A stretch of DNA of 64,000 bases, taken from IMG/VR virus record IMGVR_UViG_3300043570_000570, positions 32,001-96,000 of that record; one strand, 5' to 3'. Source of the DNA: a virus. Positions 3,098 to 51,107 of the stretch are shown here, one piece after another (the stretch's first letter is position 1; each line of letters begins with the position of its first letter). A model generated the notes under the pieces. It ran no database searches, had not been told where the DNA came from, and saw only the letters and a list, made by a program, of their open reading frames with translations. Both the position numbers and the translations under genes were made by a program.

Positions 3098-5307
3098 TTT
3101 TTTACTTTTGATTTAGCTAAGAATGAAGTTAGGTCATACTTTACTTTTTCTCTATCGAACTGTTTTGATAGTTGGTTAGCCAACTTTAATCTGTTGGGTT
3201 TACTTTCTACTCTACGAAGAATACTTGCTACTCCGTTAACCATGTCTTTATCATCACTGTGGTCTATCTTGCCTCCTCTTTCATAAGTACTAAAAGGTAA
3301 ATACTTACTAAATGAAGAAGCATTTTTTTGACCTTCTGATTGATCCTTTATATAATCAATAGCTTTTTTTTGGTCTGGAAATAAACTAGTTTTTCCTCGA
3401 CCTAAAAAAGTATTCTCTCCCTGACGTAGTTGATTTACTCTATTTGCATTTAATATACCTTCTGATGTATTATACATAAAAGGAGCAGTAGACATAGTGT
3501 TGTAATCCATTTCTGTTAGTTTACCTGTCCGCATCCTATCAATAGCACCATCTCCCAAAACACTAGCAAATTCTTGATCGGTTAATTTACCTTTTCCCAT
3601 ACTCATAATTCGTGCTTCCTCTGGCATACCCTCCGCAAACTGTTGTTTCATTTTATACTCAGGAAGGCGATCTCGCATCATTCTTACAGGCTCTACTTCA
3701 CCTTTAAAATAATTTTTAGTTACAAATCCTTCTCCCTGAGGAGTCTTTAAATTGTTCACGTAAAATTCAGAACCACGTAAATCATCTAATGCCCATCTAC
3801 CTGTAAGATCATTAGGTGTTGCTGCTTTATTAAAGTTTGCATGTTCTGTTCTATATACATTTTTATAAGTAGGCAGTGCAGGTTTACCTGCAATTTTAGA
3901 AGTTTGTACTACATCGTCAGCATATTTAGAAACTCCCTTGAGTATCGAACTACCAAAAGGTTTAATTGCTTTAGCAGCTGGTATAACTTGAAGTGCATTC
4001 ATACCAGCATTTAACAAATCGCTCCCGGCTTCAGCAAAATTACCTTGTGCAACATTAGATACAGCAGATCCTGTATTGCCTACTAAATCAGTTGCTGCAA
4101 ATGCAAGTGAAGCAGGATTAACCATATCTAATACATGGTCTAATGGATCAGCAGAACCTTTACGTTGTTCTGCCTGAGATACAAAGGAAGTAGCTTCTCT
4201 AGCTTTTTCATAATCAGATTTAACTTTACCTTGAGTAACACTACCAACTTTCCTTGCATACTGAGCAGCTTCTGCTGCTTTTCTATTAGCTAAGTCAGGA
4301 GTACTTACTTTAGTGTTATCACTATAGCCAGCATTACCTGCAGGACTAGTTCTCATGTAAGGTTTATCAACAATAGGAGTCCAGCCAGACCATCCTCCAT
4401 TATCCATCCGTGTAAGTGGGTAAGTAGGAGTGTTTTGTTGCACTTTAAAAGGTCCTGCAGTAGGCAAATCATTAGGACTGAAAGAGTAAACATTACCTGA
4501 AGGATCCATAGCATGTGAGTATCCTGCAGCTTTATCCCCCCTAATAGCCATGCTAGCAGTTGGATGATCCATAGCTTTTAACATTTTTCCAGTTTGAGGA
4601 TGTCTAGAATATGCATGATATAACCCATCATCTTCCTTAAGTTGAGAATAATCAAAACCAATAGGTCTTTTTAATGAATCCCAATATCCTCTTATGTCAT
4701 ACTGAGAAGTATCACTTTGTAAATTAGAAGGAAGAGTTTTATAAAATTTTTGAAATTCTGTTTCTTCTTTAGGAGTTAAAGAAGTTAATCCTCCATTAGG
4801 CATTATGGGTCTATTAGGATTAGGTCTCATAACCACTTGAGCATTGTCCCTTTGAGGAACTCTCATAGTATTATTATTGTTAACACTAAACTCGTTAACT
4901 GTACCTGCTACTCTTGTAATAGGTTTTATTGTATTGTTAACTCTATTAACTGTTCTGCTAGCTTGAGCAGCACCTATAGCTAAATTACTATAAGGTCTAA
5001 TTCGATTTGCTACTCTAGCTACTCCCATTAATCCTTTAGCAGTTCCTCCTGTTACTATATTTAAAGCGTCTAATCCTGCTCCCATGTAATCACCTTGAGC
5101 AATATTGGATGCAGCACTAGCACCTGAAGCATACATACCTATAGGCCCAGGAATATAACTAGCTGCTTCTACAGCCATACCGAATCCTGTACTTCCCCCA
5201 TTAGGCATCTTACGCTTCTTAGAATTCTTATATGCACCCTTAAGTCTTGAACCTGTAGGTGCATTAGAATTTGCAATTATAGAACCGTTAACCCCTGGGA
5301 CAAACAT
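3094..5307 (-). CDS. Modular virion cargo protein with pre-toxin(TG)-like helical segments
   Basis: 737 aa; modules separated by MPNGG/MDNGG/YERGG; two IPG..AS..A..NxAQGx(Y/F)..AG.D.LN segments. Confidence 0.5.
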   Translation of the reverse strand: MFVPGVNGSIIANSNAPTGSRLKGAYKNSKKRKMPNGGSTGFGMAVEAASYIPGPIGMYASGASAASNIAQGDYMGAGLDALNIVTGGTAKGLMGVARVANRIRPYSNLAIGAAQASRTVNRVNNTIKPITRVAGTVNEFSVNNNNTMRVPQRDNAQVVMRPNPNRPIMPNGGLTSLTPKEETEFQKFYKTLPSNLQSDTSQYDIRGYWDSLKRPIGFDYSQLKEDDGLYHAYSRHPQTGKMLKAMDHPTASMAIRGDKAAGYSHAMDPSGNVYSFSPNDLPTAGPFKVQQNTPTYPLTRMDNGGWSGWTPIVDKPYMRTSPAGNAGYSDNTKVSTPDLANRKAAEAAQYARKVGSVTQGKVKSDYEKAREATSFVSQAEQRKGSADPLDHVLDMVNPASLAFAATDLVGNTGSAVSNVAQGNFAEAGSDLLNAGMNALQVIPAAKAIKPFGSSILKGVSKYADDVVQTSKIAGKPALPTYKNVYRTEHANFNKAATPNDLTGRWALDDLRGSEFYVNNLKTPQGEGFVTKNYFKGEVEPVRMMRDRLPEYKMKQQFAEGMPEEARIMSMGKGKLTDQEFASVLGDGAIDRMRTGKLTEMDYNTMSTAPFMYNTSEGILNANRVNQLRQGENTFLGRGKTSLFPDQKKAIDYIKDQSEGQKNASSFSKYLPFSTYERGGKIDHSDDKDMVNGVASILRRVESKPNRLKLANQLSKQFDREKVKYDLTSFLAKSKVKK

Positions 5308-12583: not shown

Positions 12584-13075
12584 TTAAGACTGTATGTCTA
12601 TTTTGTTTTCTCTTATAGCTTGCGCTAGTACTGCTTTGTGTTTGTTAGACACTCTTAAGTCATAAAAGCCAAACTGTACTACCCTCTTATAGTAAGGATA
12701 CAAGTGAAACTTATAGACGGCACCATTGGTATGTGTGTTTCTATAAGGCACTTTGACACCAGTTTCGTGGTAGAGTTTCCAGTTAATAATCGTATGTTTA
12801 GCTTTTGGAATTGCATTTTCTGTCTTTACAACTTTAATGGAACCTAAGTTTGGAAATCTAATTGCGTATCTACCACGTAACAATCTCTCCATAAGTTTTA
12901 AGTGTATCCTTTTAGGAATGCCACAAAATTCTTTGTAGGTGATATCTTTACGTTTGGTTTCTCTTAAGAACATTTCGTAAGCACCAAGACAGACATAGTT
13001 CGTATCTGAAGCTGTGTCTTTCTCTTTTTGTCTTACTTTGGGTTGCTGGTTTTTTCTTATAAAGTCTTTCGACAT
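12584..13075 (-). CDS. IHF/HU-like protein of the crAss-like tail module
   Basis: IRFPNLGSIKVVK...INWK...YRNTHTNG; position between ring genes. Confidence 0.6.
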   Translation of the reverse strand: MSKDFIRKNQQPKVRQKEKDTASDTNYVCLGAYEMFLRETKRKDITYKEFCGIPKRIHLKLMERLLRGRYAIRFPNLGSIKVVKTENAIPKAKHTIINWKLYHETGVKVPYRNTHTNGAVYKFHLYPYYKRVVQFGFYDLRVSNKHKAVLAQAIRENKIDIQS

Positions 13076-13077
13076 AA

Positions 13078-13719
13078 TTAGTTGGGTTCGTCTCTGTTGT
13101 TATCTTCCAAGTCTTGAGGGATTCTTTGATAGTTCATCAATGACTGAGTACACATTTCAATTAATGCGTCTGTTAGATAACCTGGGAACTTAAATTGTTT
13201 ATCATACATACTCATGCATTCTGTACCATCTAAGTCTTCTATAGACTCAGTGAAGTAAGCGTACATATTAACACACTCTACGTCAGGATCTAAAACATAC
13301 AAATATCCATTACGAATGGTGTAGTATTTTTTAGGGGTCTTAAAACGTAAGCGGGTATGATTGATGTAATCTCTAATAGTCGTGGGGAAAAGTTCTTCTG
13401 AGTTCGAAGTATTGAATACCCCCTGAATGAAATATGAATATAAACCTTCATCTATGTTTGGTAGTTTGTGTTTGGTTCTACGGATAGGACAATTTAAATC
13501 ACACTCCGATCCCTTAGCTTCAATCAAGTGTACACACTCATATGATTGATAAACATTATCTGAAGTAAGCAACCTTCTCAAATTGATCTCTCTACGTAGT
13601 AAAGTAGCTGCTTTTGTTTTTAATAAACCATAAATATAACGATCAGTGATTAAGTCATCGTCACTAACAAACTTGTTAGCACTCTTAACTCTACCGATTA
13701 ATTCTGAATTTGTGTACAT
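13078..13719 (-). CDS. Tail ring/adaptor protein
   Basis: YYTIRNGYLYV...FKFPGYL...PQDLEDN; crAss-like synteny. Confidence 0.6.
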   Translation of the reverse strand: MYTNSELIGRVKSANKFVSDDDLITDRYIYGLLKTKAATLLRREINLRRLLTSDNVYQSYECVHLIEAKGSECDLNCPIRRTKHKLPNIDEGLYSYFIQGVFNTSNSEELFPTTIRDYINHTRLRFKTPKKYYTIRNGYLYVLDPDVECVNMYAYFTESIEDLDGTECMSMYDKQFKFPGYLTDALIEMCTQSLMNYQRIPQDLEDNNRDEPN

Positions 13720-13755
13720 CTCAGGATATAGTTTGGGTTAATTTAAGGTTCATTA

Positions 13756-13786
13756 CAAATATAATTTAATTTTAAGTTTAAGTCAA
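13756..13786 (-). promoter_or_regulatory. Bacteroidota-type promoter
   Basis: CAAATATA 13756-13763 and CAA 13784-13786 on + strand (TTG-N20-TATATTTG on -). Confidence 0.6.
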
Positions 13787-13796
13787 GGGTTATTTT

Positions 13797-13875
13797 AAAA
13801 CTAGAAGAGCCCACTTTCGCAGGCTCCTACTAGCAAGATGACAGGAAAACCAACCAAAAAATCCTGCCAAGATTT
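13797..13875 (-). ncRNA. Candidate antisense sRNA hairpin plus terminator
   Basis: Minus strand: hairpin GGCAGGA-UUUUUUGGUUGGUUU-UCCUGUC, then GAGCCUGC-GAAA-GUGGGCUC and U-run; 10+10 nt complementary to the start of ORF 29276-29479. Confidence 0.45.
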
Positions 13876-13878
13876 TTA

Positions 13879-15762
13879 TTAAATTGCTGCGTAAGAATTT
13901 CCTCCGATAAATATCTCAAGAGATTCTCCAACAGCTAAAGATATTGGACTTGCAGGGTTATTCAATTCTATCGTTAAGTCACTACCATTTATGTAACATA
14001 CACCTTGATACACAACAGTCGAGTTAGTACCTGAAGTTGTTGCATACTTAAGAATCAATACGTTAAATACTGGAAGGTATAGAGGAAGATATCCTGCAGG
14101 AACTGTTGCAAAGACTAAAGATTGACCGTGTGCCCAAGCAAAAGAACCTGAAGCATTTACAGCCAAACTTCCAACGATTGTAATTGTTTTACCAAACTTA
14201 GATACTTTAGGCAAAGATCCACTTGGGAATCTTAAAGAAGGAGCAACTACTGCATTGGTTAAAGTTCCTGCAACTAAATTAACTGCTGTAGCCGTTCCAC
14301 TAGATCCAGAAGACTCTAAGTTAATAGTTACATTACCTGCATTATCAGCACGAGTAATAGACACTGTTCCTCCAGTAGAAGTAAAGATAAGTTCTTTATT
14401 TACAAACTCAGAACCATTCCAGAACAAAGTATGGTAGGTTGCAGGAGAACTTGTAGTTACATCAGACAGAGCAGAGATAGAACAAGTACTCAATTGAGAG
14501 CAAGCAAATCTTACTCCTGAAGCCAAAGCTACATTTAATCCGTCTGCATCACTCGTAGCAACAAAGTCACTAGAATTTAATTTAAGTTTTAATCTACCTA
14601 AAGTAGAAACGATCTTTCCTAATTGGTTAATTAGTGTATCTGAACTGTTAGTAAAACCAAAAGTATAACCGTAATAAGGAGTTGATCCAAAGTTTGTAGC
14701 CCAAGTTAAAGCATAACTAGAAGCAGGTATAGAAGCTAAGGTAGTATTAATTGCACAGATCTGACTTGTAAACAAGATAGCTGCTGCAGCTAAAGTGCTA
14801 GTTGCTGATCCTCCTGTAATACATGAAGTATTAATAGATGCTGGAACAGAACCTCCGCCAGCTACATAAAGTTTAAGATCGTTAGCTGTAACAGTTACAG
14901 TACCAATATTAGTGTTTTGCAAAGTATGCATACCACACATGTTAGTAGTAACCCAGTTAATATAATCCGAAACTACAGTGGTAGAAGGCTTAGTAGTAAA
15001 TGAGTAAGAGATACAAGGATTGTTTACAACCCCAGTCATATCTACACTTGTGTTAATAGAACAGATTTTTGTTCCGTAAGCAGTCAAGATTTGACTTAAA
15101 GTAGAAGTACCTGAAGTAATCCCAGATACACAAGCTGCAACAAACGTAGGAGTTTCTAAAGCAAGAGTCCTAGTATTCAAAGAACATAAAGCAGCAGAGG
15201 TAGCTTCAGTGAACTGTTGTGCAGTTGTAATAGCTGTTCCTATACCTGTTAAAGCTCCTCCTACACGTAGACAAGAGTAGTTGAACCCAGAGTAGTTAAG
15301 ACCTACTGAGGTAATCGTACAAAGTCTTTGGTGTAAGTTAGTAATAGCTTGATCTAAAGTACTAGTAGTAGAAATTAAAGCTGCTAAAGATGTAACAGTT
15401 AAAACTAAGTCGTTAGCAGTAGTAGCTCCACCTAACGCTGTACCTAATATTGTAATAGTATCGTTTACTGTATAAGAAGATCCTGAAGATACAATAGTAA
15501 CAGTGTAAACAGTAGATCCAACAGTTCTAGTTACTTTAACTTGAAGTCCACTACCTGTTCCACCCGCAGGTGTTAAGGTCACTTCAGTTGTGGTTAAAGG
15601 GGGTACTGCTGTACCTGTAAAAGTAAGTGTACCTACTCCCCCTGTAGCACAGTACAAAGGAGAACCAGAGTAAGTAATACACTTACCGTAGTTCGTTGAA
15701 AGACATCCTACTTCAGCGCAGGGTGTGTATATAGTTCCAGTGCAATCAATACAAGTAGACAT
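13879..15762 (-). CDS. Thr/Ser/Cys-rich tail fibre/collar protein
   Basis: 627 aa low-charge structural composition; GKCITYSG N-terminal motif shared with the next gene. Confidence 0.55.
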   Translation of the reverse strand: MSTCIDCTGTIYTPCAEVGCLSTNYGKCITYSGSPLYCATGGVGTLTFTGTAVPPLTTTEVTLTPAGGTGSGLQVKVTRTVGSTVYTVTIVSSGSSYTVNDTITILGTALGGATTANDLVLTVTSLAALISTTSTLDQAITNLHQRLCTITSVGLNYSGFNYSCLRVGGALTGIGTAITTAQQFTEATSAALCSLNTRTLALETPTFVAACVSGITSGTSTLSQILTAYGTKICSINTSVDMTGVVNNPCISYSFTTKPSTTVVSDYINWVTTNMCGMHTLQNTNIGTVTVTANDLKLYVAGGGSVPASINTSCITGGSATSTLAAAAILFTSQICAINTTLASIPASSYALTWATNFGSTPYYGYTFGFTNSSDTLINQLGKIVSTLGRLKLKLNSSDFVATSDADGLNVALASGVRFACSQLSTCSISALSDVTTSSPATYHTLFWNGSEFVNKELIFTSTGGTVSITRADNAGNVTINLESSGSSGTATAVNLVAGTLTNAVVAPSLRFPSGSLPKVSKFGKTITIVGSLAVNASGSFAWAHGQSLVFATVPAGYLPLYLPVFNVLILKYATTSGTNSTVVYQGVCYINGSDLTIELNNPASPISLAVGESLEIFIGGNSYAAI

Positions 15763-18458: not shown

Positions 18459-18516
18459 TTTTGTTTTATTTAATTAAGGTTAAAAAAGGGGAGAGTATTA
18501 GTCTCCCCTATTTAGA

Positions 18517-24338: not shown

Positions 24339-24359
24339 AATGGTTAGTTTGGTTTAATT

Positions 24360-24389
24360 CAAAAATAGTATTTTAAAAAATTAACACAA
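24360..24389 (-). promoter_or_regulatory. Bacteroidota-type promoter for scaffold-MCP operon
   Basis: CAAAAATA 24360-24367, CAA 24387-24389. Confidence 0.6.
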
Positions 24390-26957: not shown

Positions 26958-28967
26958 TTAGTATCTAAATGGGGATGAGGTTGTACGGAACAATGAGTTT
27001 CCTTTCTTCTCTCGGAAGTAAGCTTGGATTCTATTGTCGTCACTAGAGTTTGAAATAATAACCTGTGTAGTAAGAGTCTTAGCCATAGCTAAAGTTAATC
27101 CGAATGAAATAACTCGGTCAACGTTTAACTTAGGTGTAAACTTAATTAACTCCTTAATCAAGAGAGGATCTAAGATTCTAGTTACACCTAGTCTTTCTTT
27201 TATGATAGCTCCGTCTTCATCTCTTTCTACTTCTATTACTTCGGTTATGTACTCGATGATAAGAGACATCAAATAGTTCTTAATGTCTTTAGTCATGTGA
27301 ATACCATAGTCACGATTAACTGTAGAGTTAGGGTGGATATCATTTAGGAACTTAGGCGTCTTCTCTAGGACTTTAGGAGACTCGTTCTTATCTACACAAT
27401 GCTGTATAAAACCATAGTCCATGTTTTCACAAAGAGTCTTAGCATTATAATACTTAAGAAGCATCTTAGTTGTCTCATACCAAGTCTCAATTTTCTTAGG
27501 ACGACCTGTGTAACAAGCTACAACTATATTCTGCCAGCCTTCTCCACTTAAGTTATGGACCCTCTTATAAATATAAGTAGAACCCAAAGAAGTTGAGTAG
27601 TGTGCCTGTGATTGTTTGTAAGGATCCGTTCCTGCTGTATAAAGTCCATAGGGGGCTTCTGAGAGAGGATATTCCCAAATCTGAACACAACCCTCAATAG
27701 GATCTGTAGACTTAACAGGGAAGTTAATAACAGGCTTCTTATCTGTAAACTTGTGTCTGATCTTTCCTTCAGAGTTAATGAAAAGTTCTACGTTGTCTGC
27801 TTGAATTTCTTGGGCACTTAGTTTCTGTAGTTGTTCTTGAAGTAAGTCTACAGGGAATATGTTCTGAGATAGTTCTAAGAAACACTCTTCGTGATTTAAA
27901 GGATAGTACATTACTTCTTTTAAGTAAGCTTCTAATCCGTTTGATTTCTTAGTCTGTTCTCTAGACTTTAAGATAAGTTCTTTTCCTTTTTCTTCATCTG
28001 CTACCCAGATCTTAATTAGATCTAACTCAGAAGGATTTTCTTTACCTAAGTAAAGTCCTAGAGGAGTTTCTTGCTTTGGAACTTTCAAAGAACGTGTACC
28101 TGGAATAAAGAGTCCATAAGACTTTCCTGTTTCATTAGATTCTACAGGAAGGAAGTTATAGGCTTCAGGATTGTTAAAGAGTTCTTCTAGGTCTGCTGCC
28201 TTAGTCATATCTCCAGAAGTTCCGATGACAAAAGGAGAACAACGCCATCCAAATGGACTGTCAAAACAAGGAGTAGTTGCCGCTAAGCAAGAAAGGATCT
28301 TTCCTTTTCCTCCTTCTTCTAAGAGAAATGAAGATAGAGTAAGACCTGCCGCTGCCTCCGTATTGTTGCCTTCATCAAAGTTACGTACGTGGAACTTAGA
28401 CCACTCATTACGAGAGTTAGTTCTCTTGTCTTTAAATCCTAAAGTTACCTGTCTCTTCCAGTCATCCTCAATACGAGGAAATCTAAAGTAGTCAGGAAGG
28501 TTTCTAATACCTAAGTCTACGTAATCTGTGATTACTTTTAAGTCAGGTTGGTTAAGCGCAGATATCAAATTGTCAGAACCTTTCTGTGTAATGGCTTTGT
28601 GAGCCATATAAGAAGAAGTTAAAACTGACTTAGAGATACGTCTTGATCCTACCATCACAACTCCTTTCTTTCCGTCTACGTGATTTTCTGCTTTGTGGAT
28701 AGTCTCGTCTACTGCTAAATAGGTATCCCAAAGCTGAGGTTTGTCTAGCTTTCTAATTTGACGCTTACCTACCATTGTATCTATGTATATAGACCAGTAG
28801 TTTAAATGCCAATAAATAAAAGGCGAGAAATAGAATCCATTAATAGTTACACCTTCTGTAATCTTTTTGTCTTCATTCTCCCAAAATGCATCATACTCCT
28901 CTGAGCCAATCTCAGGGAAGGACTTAACATTAATAAAGAATTCTGGACTTTCTAGATTAGCATGCAT
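26958..28967 (-). CDS. terL: Terminase large subunit
   Basis: Walker A-like GSRRISKS, Walker B FLLEEGG, GTSG coupling motif, RNase H-like AGTDPY and C-terminal NVDRV. Confidence 0.9.
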   Translation of the reverse strand: MHANLESPEFFINVKSFPEIGSEEYDAFWENEDKKITEGVTINGFYFSPFIYWHLNYWSIYIDTMVGKRQIRKLDKPQLWDTYLAVDETIHKAENHVDGKKGVVMVGSRRISKSVLTSSYMAHKAITQKGSDNLISALNQPDLKVITDYVDLGIRNLPDYFRFPRIEDDWKRQVTLGFKDKRTNSRNEWSKFHVRNFDEGNNTEAAAGLTLSSFLLEEGGKGKILSCLAATTPCFDSPFGWRCSPFVIGTSGDMTKAADLEELFNNPEAYNFLPVESNETGKSYGLFIPGTRSLKVPKQETPLGLYLGKENPSELDLIKIWVADEEKGKELILKSREQTKKSNGLEAYLKEVMYYPLNHEECFLELSQNIFPVDLLQEQLQKLSAQEIQADNVELFINSEGKIRHKFTDKKPVINFPVKSTDPIEGCVQIWEYPLSEAPYGLYTAGTDPYKQSQAHYSTSLGSTYIYKRVHNLSGEGWQNIVVACYTGRPKKIETWYETTKMLLKYYNAKTLCENMDYGFIQHCVDKNESPKVLEKTPKFLNDIHPNSTVNRDYGIHMTKDIKNYLMSLIIEYITEVIEVERDEDGAIIKERLGVTRILDPLLIKELIKFTPKLNVDRVISFGLTLAMAKTLTTQVIISNSSDDNRIQAYFREKKGNSLFRTTSSPFRY

Positions 28968-28968
28968 A

Positions 28969-29286
28969 TCAACTGAATTGTTTCATCTTACCATTAATCT
29001 CTTGAGAACCTCTAGCTTCTGCTTTCTGTTCTTCCTTCTCTCTTAACCTATCTACTACTTCTAAAAGAGCTAAGTACTCTTTCATAGTATCTCTCAAAGA
29101 TTTGATTTGAGATTCTTGGCTAGCAATAACCATAGGCATAGTTCCACCTTTAGCTGTTGGCTTCCATTCAATTCTATCTTTCAAAGAGTTAATAGGGTTG
29201 TTATCTATATACCCTCTCCACTCAGTTAAGCGTTGTTCTGCCCACTCTAGTTCTGCTGATATGTATGATAATTTCTTAACGGCCAT
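28969..29286 (-). CDS. Helical protein upstream of terL (possible small terminase)
   Basis: Position only; coiled-coil C-terminus ending ARGSQEI. Confidence 0.35.
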   Translation of the reverse strand: MAVKKLSYISAELEWAEQRLTEWRGYIDNNPINSLKDRIEWKPTAKGGTMPMVIASQESQIKSLRDTMKEYLALLEVVDRLREKEEQKAEARGSQEINGKMKQFS

Positions 29287-29479
29287 TTGAGTATTTCTTT
29301 AAAAATTCTTCTTGAGACATATTCATGATGTCTTCTAGCACACGTGCATAGAATTCTTCATCTCTGCCTGTTTTACTATATGAGTATCCTGCTTTCCAAA
29401 ATATCTTAAACGTCTCGAATAAGTTATCTTGTAAAGTAAAGTTTACATATGGCTGGGAGGTTGGTTGGTTGTCTGTCAT
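29276..29479 (-). CDS. Hypothetical protein (67 aa)
   Basis: ORF tightly coupled within the operon. Confidence 0.5.
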   Translation of the reverse strand: MTDNQPTSQPYVNFTLQDNLFETFKIFWKAGYSYSKTGRDEEFYARVLEDIMNMSQEEFLKKYSNGR

Positions 29480-29480
29480 C

Positions 29481-29609
29481 TTATTTTGCTTTAGAAGAAA
29501 CCTTAGTTAAAGGTTTGTCGGCAGGCAAGAAGTAGATCTGAACTCCACACTTGCTACCTGGTTTTTTGTCGCAACCGTTCTTGATGGTTACTGTTCTGTG
29601 CTTTTCCAT
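29481..29609 (-). CDS. 42-aa hypothetical protein (not in track)
   Basis: MEKHRTVTIKNGCDKKPGSKCGVQIYFLPADKPLTKVSSKAK* fills the gap between neighbours. Confidence 0.4.
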   Translation of the reverse strand: MEKHRTVTIKNGCDKKPGSKCGVQIYFLPADKPLTKVSSKAK

Positions 29610-29965: not shown

Positions 29966-30410
29966 ATAATTTCTGGTGGTTTAATATTTGTGTCTGGTAT
30001 GTTCTATCCATATACTCTATTGTTTGTTGGTTGTAGAGTTTTTTAAATTGTCCTCTTTCGTATCTGTCTTTAAATAGTTTAAGCCAATCTCCCAGCATGT
30101 AGTAGTTAGCATAACCTCTGATTGCTGTGAGTCCTTGTCTTTCTGTTTCATAAGTTAACAGATACTCTGACTTAAGTTTCTTAGCTATTACCTTGATTGC
30201 TCTAGAAGGGTTAAATACTAAAACTCCTAATCCAGATAATCTTACTTTAACTGTAGGTAGTTCTACTATGTCCTCAATAGTCTTTTTTAGGTACCACTCG
30301 TATACAGTACTTACTTTATCAATAGTAAGACCCATTTCTTTTGCTACATCAGAGTAGGCAGCGTAAGTCTTAATTTCAATAGTTTCGTATGTATCTCTTA
30401 TTGAGGTCAT
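29850..30410 (-). CDS. HU/IHF-like DNA-binding protein
   Basis: DVAKEMGLT...VRLSGLGVL. Confidence 0.5.
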   Translation of the reverse strand: MTSIRDTYETIEIKTYAAYSDVAKEMGLTIDKVSTVYEWYLKKTIEDIVELPTVKVRLSGLGVLVFNPSRAIKVIAKKLKSEYLLTYETERQGLTAIRGYANYYMLGDWLKLFKDRYERGQFKKLYNQQTIEYMDRTYQTQILNHQKLYESLQRVHGPEPEGAKEFEQSIGGSSNEDSESIQTTEQ

Positions 30411-30760
30411 GCAGTTGCTACAGCTTCTTGTTTAAGAACAGGTTGATCTAAAGTAGAAAGAACCAGAGTAAGTGTGACACCTTGCTTGCTAGTAGGACAC
30501 AATCTTGGGTTGACTGCATTCTTTTCTAAGATGCCCATCTTTCTTAACTTTGTTATCCCGTTAGAGATAACTTGGATTGATGTGTCAAACTCACTGGCGA
30601 TTCTTTCTTTTACTACTTTATCTAAAGTACCGTAAAATGAACTATGGGCTAATATACTGGTGTACAGATCGGATAATCTATATCCCGCAAGTCTTAGTAG
30701 TACATCAATGTATGCCTGATGTAACTTAACTCCTTCTTCGTATTTACGTGCTACTTTCAT
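30407..30760 (-). CDS. Winged-HTH-like DNA-binding protein
   Basis: IASEFDTSIQVISNGITKLRKMGILEK. Confidence 0.5.
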   Translation of the reverse strand: MKVARKYEEGVKLHQAYIDVLLRLAGYRLSDLYTSILAHSSFYGTLDKVVKERIASEFDTSIQVISNGITKLRKMGILEKNAVNPRLCPTSKQGVTLTLVLSTLDQPVLKQEAVATA

Positions 30761-30783
30761 TGGTTGGTTTGGTTTAACATGAA

Positions 30784-30939
30784 CAAATATACTATCTTAA
30801 CAAAAAAAGTCAAGTTATATGTTAACTCAAAGAATACTTTTAACTTAAGATATTAACCGTGTTAACCCAACTCTTAACACCTATGGTTATTTTAGTGAAA
30901 AACTATCTCTAGACAAAAAATAATTTAAGATTATATTTG
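30784..30939. promoter_or_regulatory. Divergent Bacteroidota-type promoter pair
   Basis: Minus: CAAATATA 30784-30791 with CAA 30811-30813. Plus: TATATTTG 30932-30939. Confidence 0.6.
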
Positions 30940-39880: not shown

Positions 39881-40010
39881 AGATAGTAGAGGTGAGAAAA
39901 GGTTGGTTATGGGCAAAGATAAAACTTTAAAAAAATAAGTCAACTGCTTAACTATAAAACAAAAAACCCCCAGATTTCTCTGAGGGTCTTAATAAATTAC
40001 TTAATGTTAA

Positions 40011-47489: not shown

Positions 47490-47551
47490 GGTCGACTATG
47501 CGACCTTAAATAGCCTTTAGGCATAGTGCGTCACTATATGAGTGGGTATGG
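47490..47551 (+). ncRNA. Pistol self-cleaving ribozyme
   Basis: P1 GGUCG/CGACC; loop ACUAUG pairs with CAUAGU (pseudoknot); conserved UUAAAUAG and GCG; P3 UCACU/AGUGG; GU cleavage dinucleotide 47546-47547; P2 CCUU/AUGG has one mismatch. Confidence 0.8.
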
Positions 47552-47868: not shown

Positions 47869-47894
47869 TCTCCCTTTACTTTAACTAAACAAAT

Positions 47895-48044
47895 ATGAAA
47901 AACTATAGAGTCACCTACTATAATACAGAATATAGCATTAAGTCTATTTCTGTTATGGCTTTTACTCAAGAAGAAGCAAGAACTTATGTATATAGTCACA
48001 TAGAAGATTGTGTTCAAACACTCTCTGCTGAATATATATACTAA
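47895..48044 (+). CDS. 49-aa early protein (not in track)
   Basis: MKNYRVTYYNTEYSIKSISVMAFTQEEARTYVYSHIEDCVQTLSAEYIY*; A-rich leader. Confidence 0.6.
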   Translation: MKNYRVTYYNTEYSIKSISVMAFTQEEARTYVYSHIEDCVQTLSAEYIY

Positions 48045-49824: not shown

Positions 49825-49896
49825 GTCCCTTTCGTCTATTGGTAGGACAGCAGGATTTCATCCTGTTAAAGGTGTGTTCGATTCACCCAGGGGATA
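49825..49896 (+). tRNA. tRNA-Glu (anticodon TTC)
   Basis: Acceptor GTCCCTT/AGGGGAT, D-arm, anticodon arm GCAGG-ATTTCAT-CCTGT, T-loop TTCGATT; one T-stem mismatch; CCA not encoded (CTA). Confidence 0.8.
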
Positions 49897-51010: not shown

Positions 51011-51107
51011 ATTGCTGAACTCACACTATAGTTTTTCATATTTTCTATATTAAAGCAATCATATCTGTTAGGGTAAAAAGGGGAAGAGTGTGAGCTTCCC
51101 TTTTTTT
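51011..51107 (+). ncRNA. Candidate antisense sRNA hairpin plus terminator
   Basis: 51026-51043 is the exact reverse complement of 47891-47908; terminator GGGAAG-AGUGUGAG-CUUCCC-U7. Confidence 0.5.

Follow-up and report, generated by a model that had tools for sequence, protein, structure and literature searches.

Does the stem-loop between the last gene of a late transcription unit and its terminator merely belong to the transcript end, or is it an antisense RNA that reads the start codons of genes located elsewhere in the phage genome? The locus that raises this question belongs to a freshwater crAss-like phage, and the stretch analysed (the window, 64,000 nt) corresponds to positions 32001-96000 in an IMG/VR virus record of 116 kb. 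The terL gene is akin to those of Cellulophaga phi4:1 and crAss-like gut phages, and the promoters in this phage are of the Bacteroidota type (TTG...TAnnTTTG). No isolated phage matched the locus in a near-identity search. The late transcription unit that includes the 627-aa gene runs from a promoter at ~17.9 kb, and the 159 nt that follow the stop codon of this gene (13879) accommodate a stem-loop that we call hairpin 1, then an intrinsic terminator and then the promoter that serves the ring-protein-2 gene (13078-13719, Pfam CrAss_Ring_2). The coordinates of these features and of the proposed targets are given in Table 1.

Table 1. Position of the hairpin element, its neighbours and the matching start regions in the window.
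Feature	Position	Strand	Description
Hairpin 1	13839..13869	-	8-bp stem and 15-nt loop, by fold
Hairpin 1, 5' arm	13869..13862	-	UGGCAGGA
Hairpin 1, loop (15 nt)	13861..13847	-	U6-GGUUGGUUUU
Hairpin 1, 3' arm	13846..13839	-	UCCUGUCA
Seed block 1	13848..13857	-	UUGGUUGGUU, wholly within the loop; complement of AACCAACCAA
Block 2	13835..13844	-	CUGUCAUCUU, 3' arm and linker; complement of AAGAUGACAG across the target AUG
Intrinsic terminator	13796..13834	-	15-bp interrupted stem, GAAA loop, U run
Promoter of the next unit	13756..13786	-	TTGACT, 17 nt, TATATTTG (Bacteroidota-type TAnnTTTG box)
627-aa late gene	13879..15762	-	last gene of the transcription unit ending at the element
Target 1	29461..29482	-	AAGAUGACAG-AC-AACCAACCAA, spanning the AUG (29479..29477) of the 67-aa ORF
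67-aa ORF	29276-29479	-	from the ORF list
105-aa ORF	28969-29286	-	overlaps the 67-aa ORF by 11 nt
terL	26958-28967	-	start overlaps the stop of the 105-aa ORF; PHROG 6681 at 1.6e-97
Target 2	30760..30770	-	AAACCAACCAA, abutting AUG 30760 of the 117-aa ORF
383-aa gene leader	24339..24360	-	AAACCAAACUAACCA; weak 7-nt match in the window genome
Extra AACCAACC copy in a transcript leader	39900..39914	-	directly after a TTGACT...TATCTTTG promoter

A 4-nt linker joins hairpin 1 to the terminator (linker and terminator together, 13838..13796), and the hairpin-plus-terminator stretch folds at -32.1 kcal/mol, with a z-score of -5.1 against shuffled sequences. The terminator, with its stem and U run, was predicted on the minus strand only, which is the strand of the upstream 627-aa gene. 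Hairpin 1 is rich in A, U and G, is not followed by a U run and has a more conserved sequence than the terminator. A plain intrinsic terminator as the explanation of the whole element was ruled out, since hairpin 1 is separate from the terminator. A comparison of the element with Rfam retrieved no family at threshold (best E-value 1.1, to unrelated models). We saw no promoter belonging to the element itself, so a discrete small RNA would have to be produced by processing.

The 627-aa gene has no Pfam or PHROG family and is 36-83% identical among relatives, versus 75-99% for terL. It is far more variable than its flanks, and the intergenic element at its 3' side is nearly identical in loci L002-L023; such variability between conserved borders is the pattern expected of a swapped host-range (tail fibre-like) gene. 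Contigs 95-99% identical to the phage were found in four freshwater or river metatranscriptome studies and cover 13041-13770, at low depth and with possible DNA carry-over. The contigs from RNA runs span the ring-protein-2 gene and its leader, and none extends over the hairpin or the 627-aa gene. Their cover, up to 13770, reaches a point ~15-20 nt 5' of the site where transcription is expected to begin. That the element is missing from the contigs is uninformative, because a short RNA beside a variable gene would not assemble.

The original prediction held that the minus-strand segment 13857..13835 pairs in two blocks of 10 nt with 29482..29461, across the AUG of the 67-aa ORF, and both the coordinates and the sequences proved correct. 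The duplex carries a 3/2-nt internal loop across the AUG (29479..29477). The 23-mer of the hairpin strand is unique in the window, where TTGGTTGGTT occurs three times (in the hairpin, at 29461-29470 and at 30760-30769) versus 0.15 copies expected and CTGTCATCTT twice (in the hairpin and at 29473-29482) versus 0.10 expected. Cofolding of the element with the target start region, with the opening of hairpin 1 included, gave a ddG of -25.5 kcal/mol, compared with -4.8 kcal/mol (sd 2.7, best -12.3) for 200 shuffled targets. The target region itself is predicted to be unstructured. Ranking by duplex energy over the whole genome is noisy because the hairpin RNA is G/U-rich: in the window genome the target came 2nd among 11,614 sequence windows, in G001 the best orthologous site was placed about 7th, and the top match in G000 was a G.U-rich stretch of an early gene on the other strand.

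The 67-aa ORF stands at the head of the terminase genes and, judged solely by the gene overlaps, the 67-aa ORF, the 105-aa ORF and terL (26958..29479) are likely to form a translationally coupled cluster. The 67-aa, 105-aa and 117-aa proteins belong to no Pfam or PHROG family. Between target 1 and the element lie a terminator (18509..18487) and the promoter at ~17.9 kb.

Relatives were collected with the 627-aa protein and terL as queries, which found 22 and 54 loci, respectively, and further genomes were added. The hairpin is present in one copy per genome and at a constant place in ~40 related IMG/VR phages. Of 22 further relatives, 18 contain its pattern; the control with the pattern written backwards gave 0. 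G005, G014 and G004 have sequence variants of it at this place, again upstream of the ring-2 gene. The matches listed by a pattern scan of IMG/VR were largely due to chance and added no further genuine variant. Even in genomes whose adjoining 627-aa gene is down to 42% identity, the arms (TTGRCAG and CTGTC) and the loop core GGTTGGTT show no change. Both GGTTGGTT and GGUUGGUU, the latter within the loop, are unchanged in 13 of the 14 aligned representatives, the exception being the loop of G004, the most distant relative (terL 62% identical), which has the same fold with a wholly different stem sequence. The hairpin and terminator fold in all 14 divergent representatives, the folds of hairpin 1 being single-sequence ones. 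Compensatory changes affect seven of the 12 consensus pairs of the adjacent terminator among the 14 relatives. RNAalifold, applied to a MAFFT alignment, recovered the terminator only, because the 3' arm of hairpin 1 was misaligned between clades. Substitutions in the stem of hairpin 1 are recurrent A/G exchanges opposite U, compatible with G.U pairing on the transcribed strand only, and they fit an RNA structure formed by the sense strand.

To compare the hairpin with its target, both were taken from one contig each time, which resulted in 23 distinct states. A two-block duplex straddling the start codon of the orthologous ORF is formed in all 23, with energies from -14 to -36 kcal/mol. Pairing was thus kept in every relative examined, and it was kept through compensating changes: the core block AACCAACC(AA) is constant, and the second block is clade-specific and matched on both sides. 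In the window clade the hairpin has CUGUCAUCUU and the target AAGAUGACAG (flank AUCUU/AAGAU), clade D shows UAAUU in the hairpin and AAUUA in the target, and G005 shows CGCUA and UAGCG. L014 pairs UGUCUAAUUGCU with AGUAAUUAGACA, and L016 pairs UGUCUAUUA with UAAUAGACA, one base having been lost on both sides, so that L016/L061 differ from L014/L074 by a 1-nt deletion matched in hairpin and target. L100 has UGUCUAAU opposite AUUAGACA, and its sister L240 has GUCUGAU opposite AUCAGAC, a single A-U to G-C double change; this is one clean swap between the sister lineages L240/L060 and L100/L058.

The energy of the cognate flanks, calculated without the core, averages -11.3 kcal/mol versus -7.9 kcal/mol (sd 0.8) for permuted partners. 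In the flank-only permutation 0 of 200,000 trials reached the cognate value, and with the core included p was ~0.001, both statistics ignoring shared ancestry; independent compensating events number about 5. The pairing is not equally strong everywhere. Clade C has a decayed target (5+9+4 pairs, -23 kcal/mol), and in clade E the flank at the 67-aa ORF is weak and the best match, of 14 nt (ACAGACAACCAACC), falls at the leader of the 117-aa homologue. Mismatches between hairpin and target show no excess of G.U-compatible changes (9 vs 10). These data strongly suggest that the complementarity between hairpin and target has been conserved and selected.

In one relative, L054 (~3470-3510; also listed as L115), the target is itself a hairpin, with UGACA and UGUCA arms and a loop containing CAACCAACCAAA, and it mirrors the regulator hairpin, which suggests a loop-loop kissing contact between the two. 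A similar GACAA/UUGUC stem surrounds the motif in the 383-aa leader of clade E.

The loop also matches start regions other than that of the 67-aa ORF. The leader of ORF 30407-30760 had been proposed as another site, and the match there, AAACCAACCAA, extends over 11 nt, ends at the A of AUG 30760 and lies within the leader that starts from the promoter at 30813..30784. This match grows to 14 nt in clades B and E. The 383-aa gene, with its short match in the window genome, has a full AACCAACCAA or ACAGACAAACCAACC site in its leader in other clades; secondary leaders are limited to a 7-nt match in several genomes. In four complete genomes, AACCAACC is the commonest of the 70 8-mers composed of A4C4, and 15 of its 41 copies are within -35..+20 of an ORF start, windows that make up 3.7% of the sequence. 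The copies either follow late promoters closely, in leaders at the 117-aa and 383-aa homologues, or fall within the initial codons of the 67-aa ORF. The G004 loop has the sequence UAUUGGUUUU, and two late (leader) genes of this genome carry AAAACCAAUA immediately 5' of their AUG; of its six other AAACCAATA copies, four are at start codons. Since the loop and the motif before the AUG are both altered in G004, the loop and the start-region motif have changed together. This distribution makes AACCAACC a motif of start regions throughout the family, common to several late genes.

Some further observations concern the 117-aa ORF and the motif. Feature-based look-alikes of the protein encoded by this ORF (30407-30760, minus strand) contain CodY-type helix-turn-helix domains, with scores of 0.93-0.94, a weak lead. 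The segment 13837..13825 (minus strand), formed by the linker and the 5' arm of the terminator (CUUGCUAGUAGGA), is an exact 13-nt complement of 30497..30485 (minus strand) in the 117-aa coding region. This match is also present in G003, with ~0.1 expected by chance, and it could be a further mRNA contact or a chance event. Outside the window, at G000:C1:111192 (plus strand), a copy of AACCAACCA is located directly before a terminator-like hairpin (GGAAGGGGAA...TTCCCCTTTC) that comes after a run of T-rich repeats, and a comparable ACCAACCAAA precedes a terminator at the end of G003.

Because the pairing has been kept by compensating changes across related phages, the hairpin is probably a phage regulatory RNA. 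The reading that we favour, and consider somewhat more probable than all others combined, is that of an antisense RNA embedded in a 3' end, which pairs with start codons and occludes them. The mRNA of the late unit would end in the conserved stem-loop followed by the intrinsic terminator, and the 15-nt loop would display UUGGUUGGUU, able to read AACCAACCAA at or just before the AUGs of several late genes. The loop would make the first contact; at the 67-aa ORF the pairing would then spread into the 3' arm of the hairpin and the linker, and the resulting duplex, two blocks with 15-29 pairs, would extend across the start codon. With the AUG covered by the duplex, initiation should be blocked, most likely at the binding of the 30S subunit, and less of the 67-aa ORF would be translated; through the overlapping stops and starts, the expression of the downstream genes, including the terminase, would also be lowered. 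The loop alone may dampen leaders of the AACCAACC type too. Either a small RNA released by processing or the intact mRNA, through its 3' UTR, could be the acting form. To our knowledge, the Bacteroidota host group initiates translation without Shine-Dalgarno pairing and lacks Hfq and ProQ. A phage ribosomal protein S21 that reshapes start-site choice was ruled out, as the genome has no S21 gene. Of the trans-acting regulator originally predicted, the start-region pairing stands, conserved with compensating changes, and the loop fits a start motif shared by several genes; that the element is transcribed, acts in trans, represses rather than activates, and works through translational coupling is what we infer from the sequence.

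We consider it unlikely that hairpin 1 works in cis only on the late mRNA, by stabilising the 3' end, by offering a site for RNase processing or by affecting termination efficiency, with the loop match arising from base composition. Its position directly before the terminator would agree with such a role, A/C-rich leaders are general in these phages, which makes a match to a U/G loop cheap, and G/U-rich RNA yields many strong spurious duplexes over the genome. Neither a cis role nor composition, however, accounts for the covariation of flanks outside the core, the A-U to G-C swap and the matched deletion, or for an invariant loop beside a terminator that drifts by compensation. The same complementarity and covariation would equally serve a pairing with another outcome, namely activation or stabilisation of the target (for example by protection from RNases), a motif that acts as a sponge, or a loop that mimics a host RNA reading the AACCAACC leader, and the sequence leaves the sign of the effect unconstrained. 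Occlusion is favoured over these outcomes, which we regard as quite improbable, by a duplex that covers the AUG itself in every clade and by a target that is predicted to have no inhibitory structure for the pairing to open.

A function at the DNA level has also been weighed: a phage protein, such as a factor for late transcription or packaging, would bind AACCAACC together with its flanks, or the two sites would be a short inverted repeat whose copies recombination keeps similar. The motif is found in forward orientation just downstream of late promoters and inverted once, at 13.8 kb, the 117-aa ORF that adjoins one site provides the weak helix-turn-helix lead, and the mismatch spectrum has no G.U preference. 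A protein site, however, is not expected to undergo matched flank changes at two loci far apart, and gene conversion would equalise the unpaired middle part too, which still differs. Moreover, the inverted copy is always within a conserved stem-loop of RNA type with G.U-compatible changes on the transcribed strand, and the other copies are sense-oriented at start codons, including those within the first codons of the 67-aa ORF. We therefore give this explanation very little credit, the least of the alternatives, and retain an antisense RNA that occludes start codons as the preferred reading.

The original prediction went further and proposed a genome-wide set of start-codon small RNAs, on the grounds of a similar layout at 51 kb. 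This sibling does exist: a second hairpin-plus-terminator element is located at 51011-51107 (plus strand), its stem and loop being complementary over 18 nt, without mismatch, to the start region of ORF 47895 (47891-47908, plus strand), with 12-nt matches at two other AAAATATGAAAA starts. Its intergenic region is kept in one of the five relatives tested (G003), and the version in G003 has no start-region complement of at least 14 nt. With two elements known in the genome, one of them poorly conserved, the claim of a genome-wide set is a weak one. The early region also has a Pistol ribozyme at 47490-47551 on the plus strand (Rfam RF02679, 47.8 bits versus a gathering score of 34.5) and a tRNA at 49825-49896 (plus strand).

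A broader and more tentative possibility is that crAss-like phages of Bacteroidota mark a set of their late mRNAs with an A/C-rich AACCAACCAA signal, before or at the AUG, that is read by a single hairpin RNA at the 3' end of the tail transcript, forming a phage-wide regulon directed against start regions; we hold this to be doubtful at present. If true, such a regulon would adjust how much packaging and other late protein is made relative to the output of structural mRNA in a host that initiates without Shine-Dalgarno pairing, and the clade-specific flanks would provide each lineage with its own high-affinity target in the terminase cluster. Little is known of how the timing and balance of late expression are controlled in these abundant phages, whose hosts initiate without Shine-Dalgarno sequences. 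The natural compensatory variants are a ready-made mutational series for hairpin and target and, together with the terminase-cluster target and the shared start motif, make post-transcriptional control directly testable in crAss-like phages.

A limited literature search retrieved no description of a regulatory RNA for crAss-like phages, and the element was compared with four known systems. Between phages P1 and P7, the c4 antisense RNA and its target differ by compensating changes, which the clade-specific flanks of the crAss-like element resemble. The c4 RNA of the immI region is structured, and its exposed segments pair with two mRNA blocks where translation of a small ORF begins, shutting off this ORF and the genes coupled to it (PMC8198154). 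Two-block pairing at the start of a small leading ORF is common to both systems, and in every state observed in the crAss-like phages the AUG lies between the two blocks or within them. However, c4 is upstream of its target in the same operon and controls an anti-repressor and immunity, whereas the crAss-like element is 15.6 kb downstream of its target, in another transcription unit of the late region, and has a target that stands first in the terminase cluster. The element was excluded from the c4 family by the lack of sequence or Rfam similarity and by the differing gene layout.

Small RNAs derived from 3' UTRs, of the CpxQ, DapZ and SroC type, are enterobacterial, depend on Hfq and pair through short linear seeds. 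Like them, the crAss-like element shares the terminator of an mRNA, has a conserved seed just upstream of this terminator and does not need a promoter of its own. It differs from them in that the seed is in a hairpin loop, that full pairing must open its own stem and that the host group is without Hfq and ProQ. The sib element of phage lambda is a cis-acting RNase III substrate formed on read-through. It is also a 3'-proximal phage RNA structure that follows a gene and exerts post-transcriptional control, whereas the stem of hairpin 1 is just 8 bp long, and what is conserved in this hairpin is the complementarity to distant start regions.

From the phylum of the hosts themselves comes GibS of Bacteroides thetaiotaomicron, which pairs across the start codons of its targets through an extended seed of two regions and binds in vitro without a chaperone, in a system that has no Hfq or ProQ (PMC7366714). 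GibS and the crAss-like element have in common the host phylum and the two-part pairing across start codons. They differ in that GibS is chromosomal, intergenic and largely unstructured, has 145 nt and its own promoter, and bears no sequence relation to the element. Compared with these systems, the crAss-like hairpin would represent a known kind of regulator, of a family that appears to be new and in a phage group for which such RNAs appear to be new.
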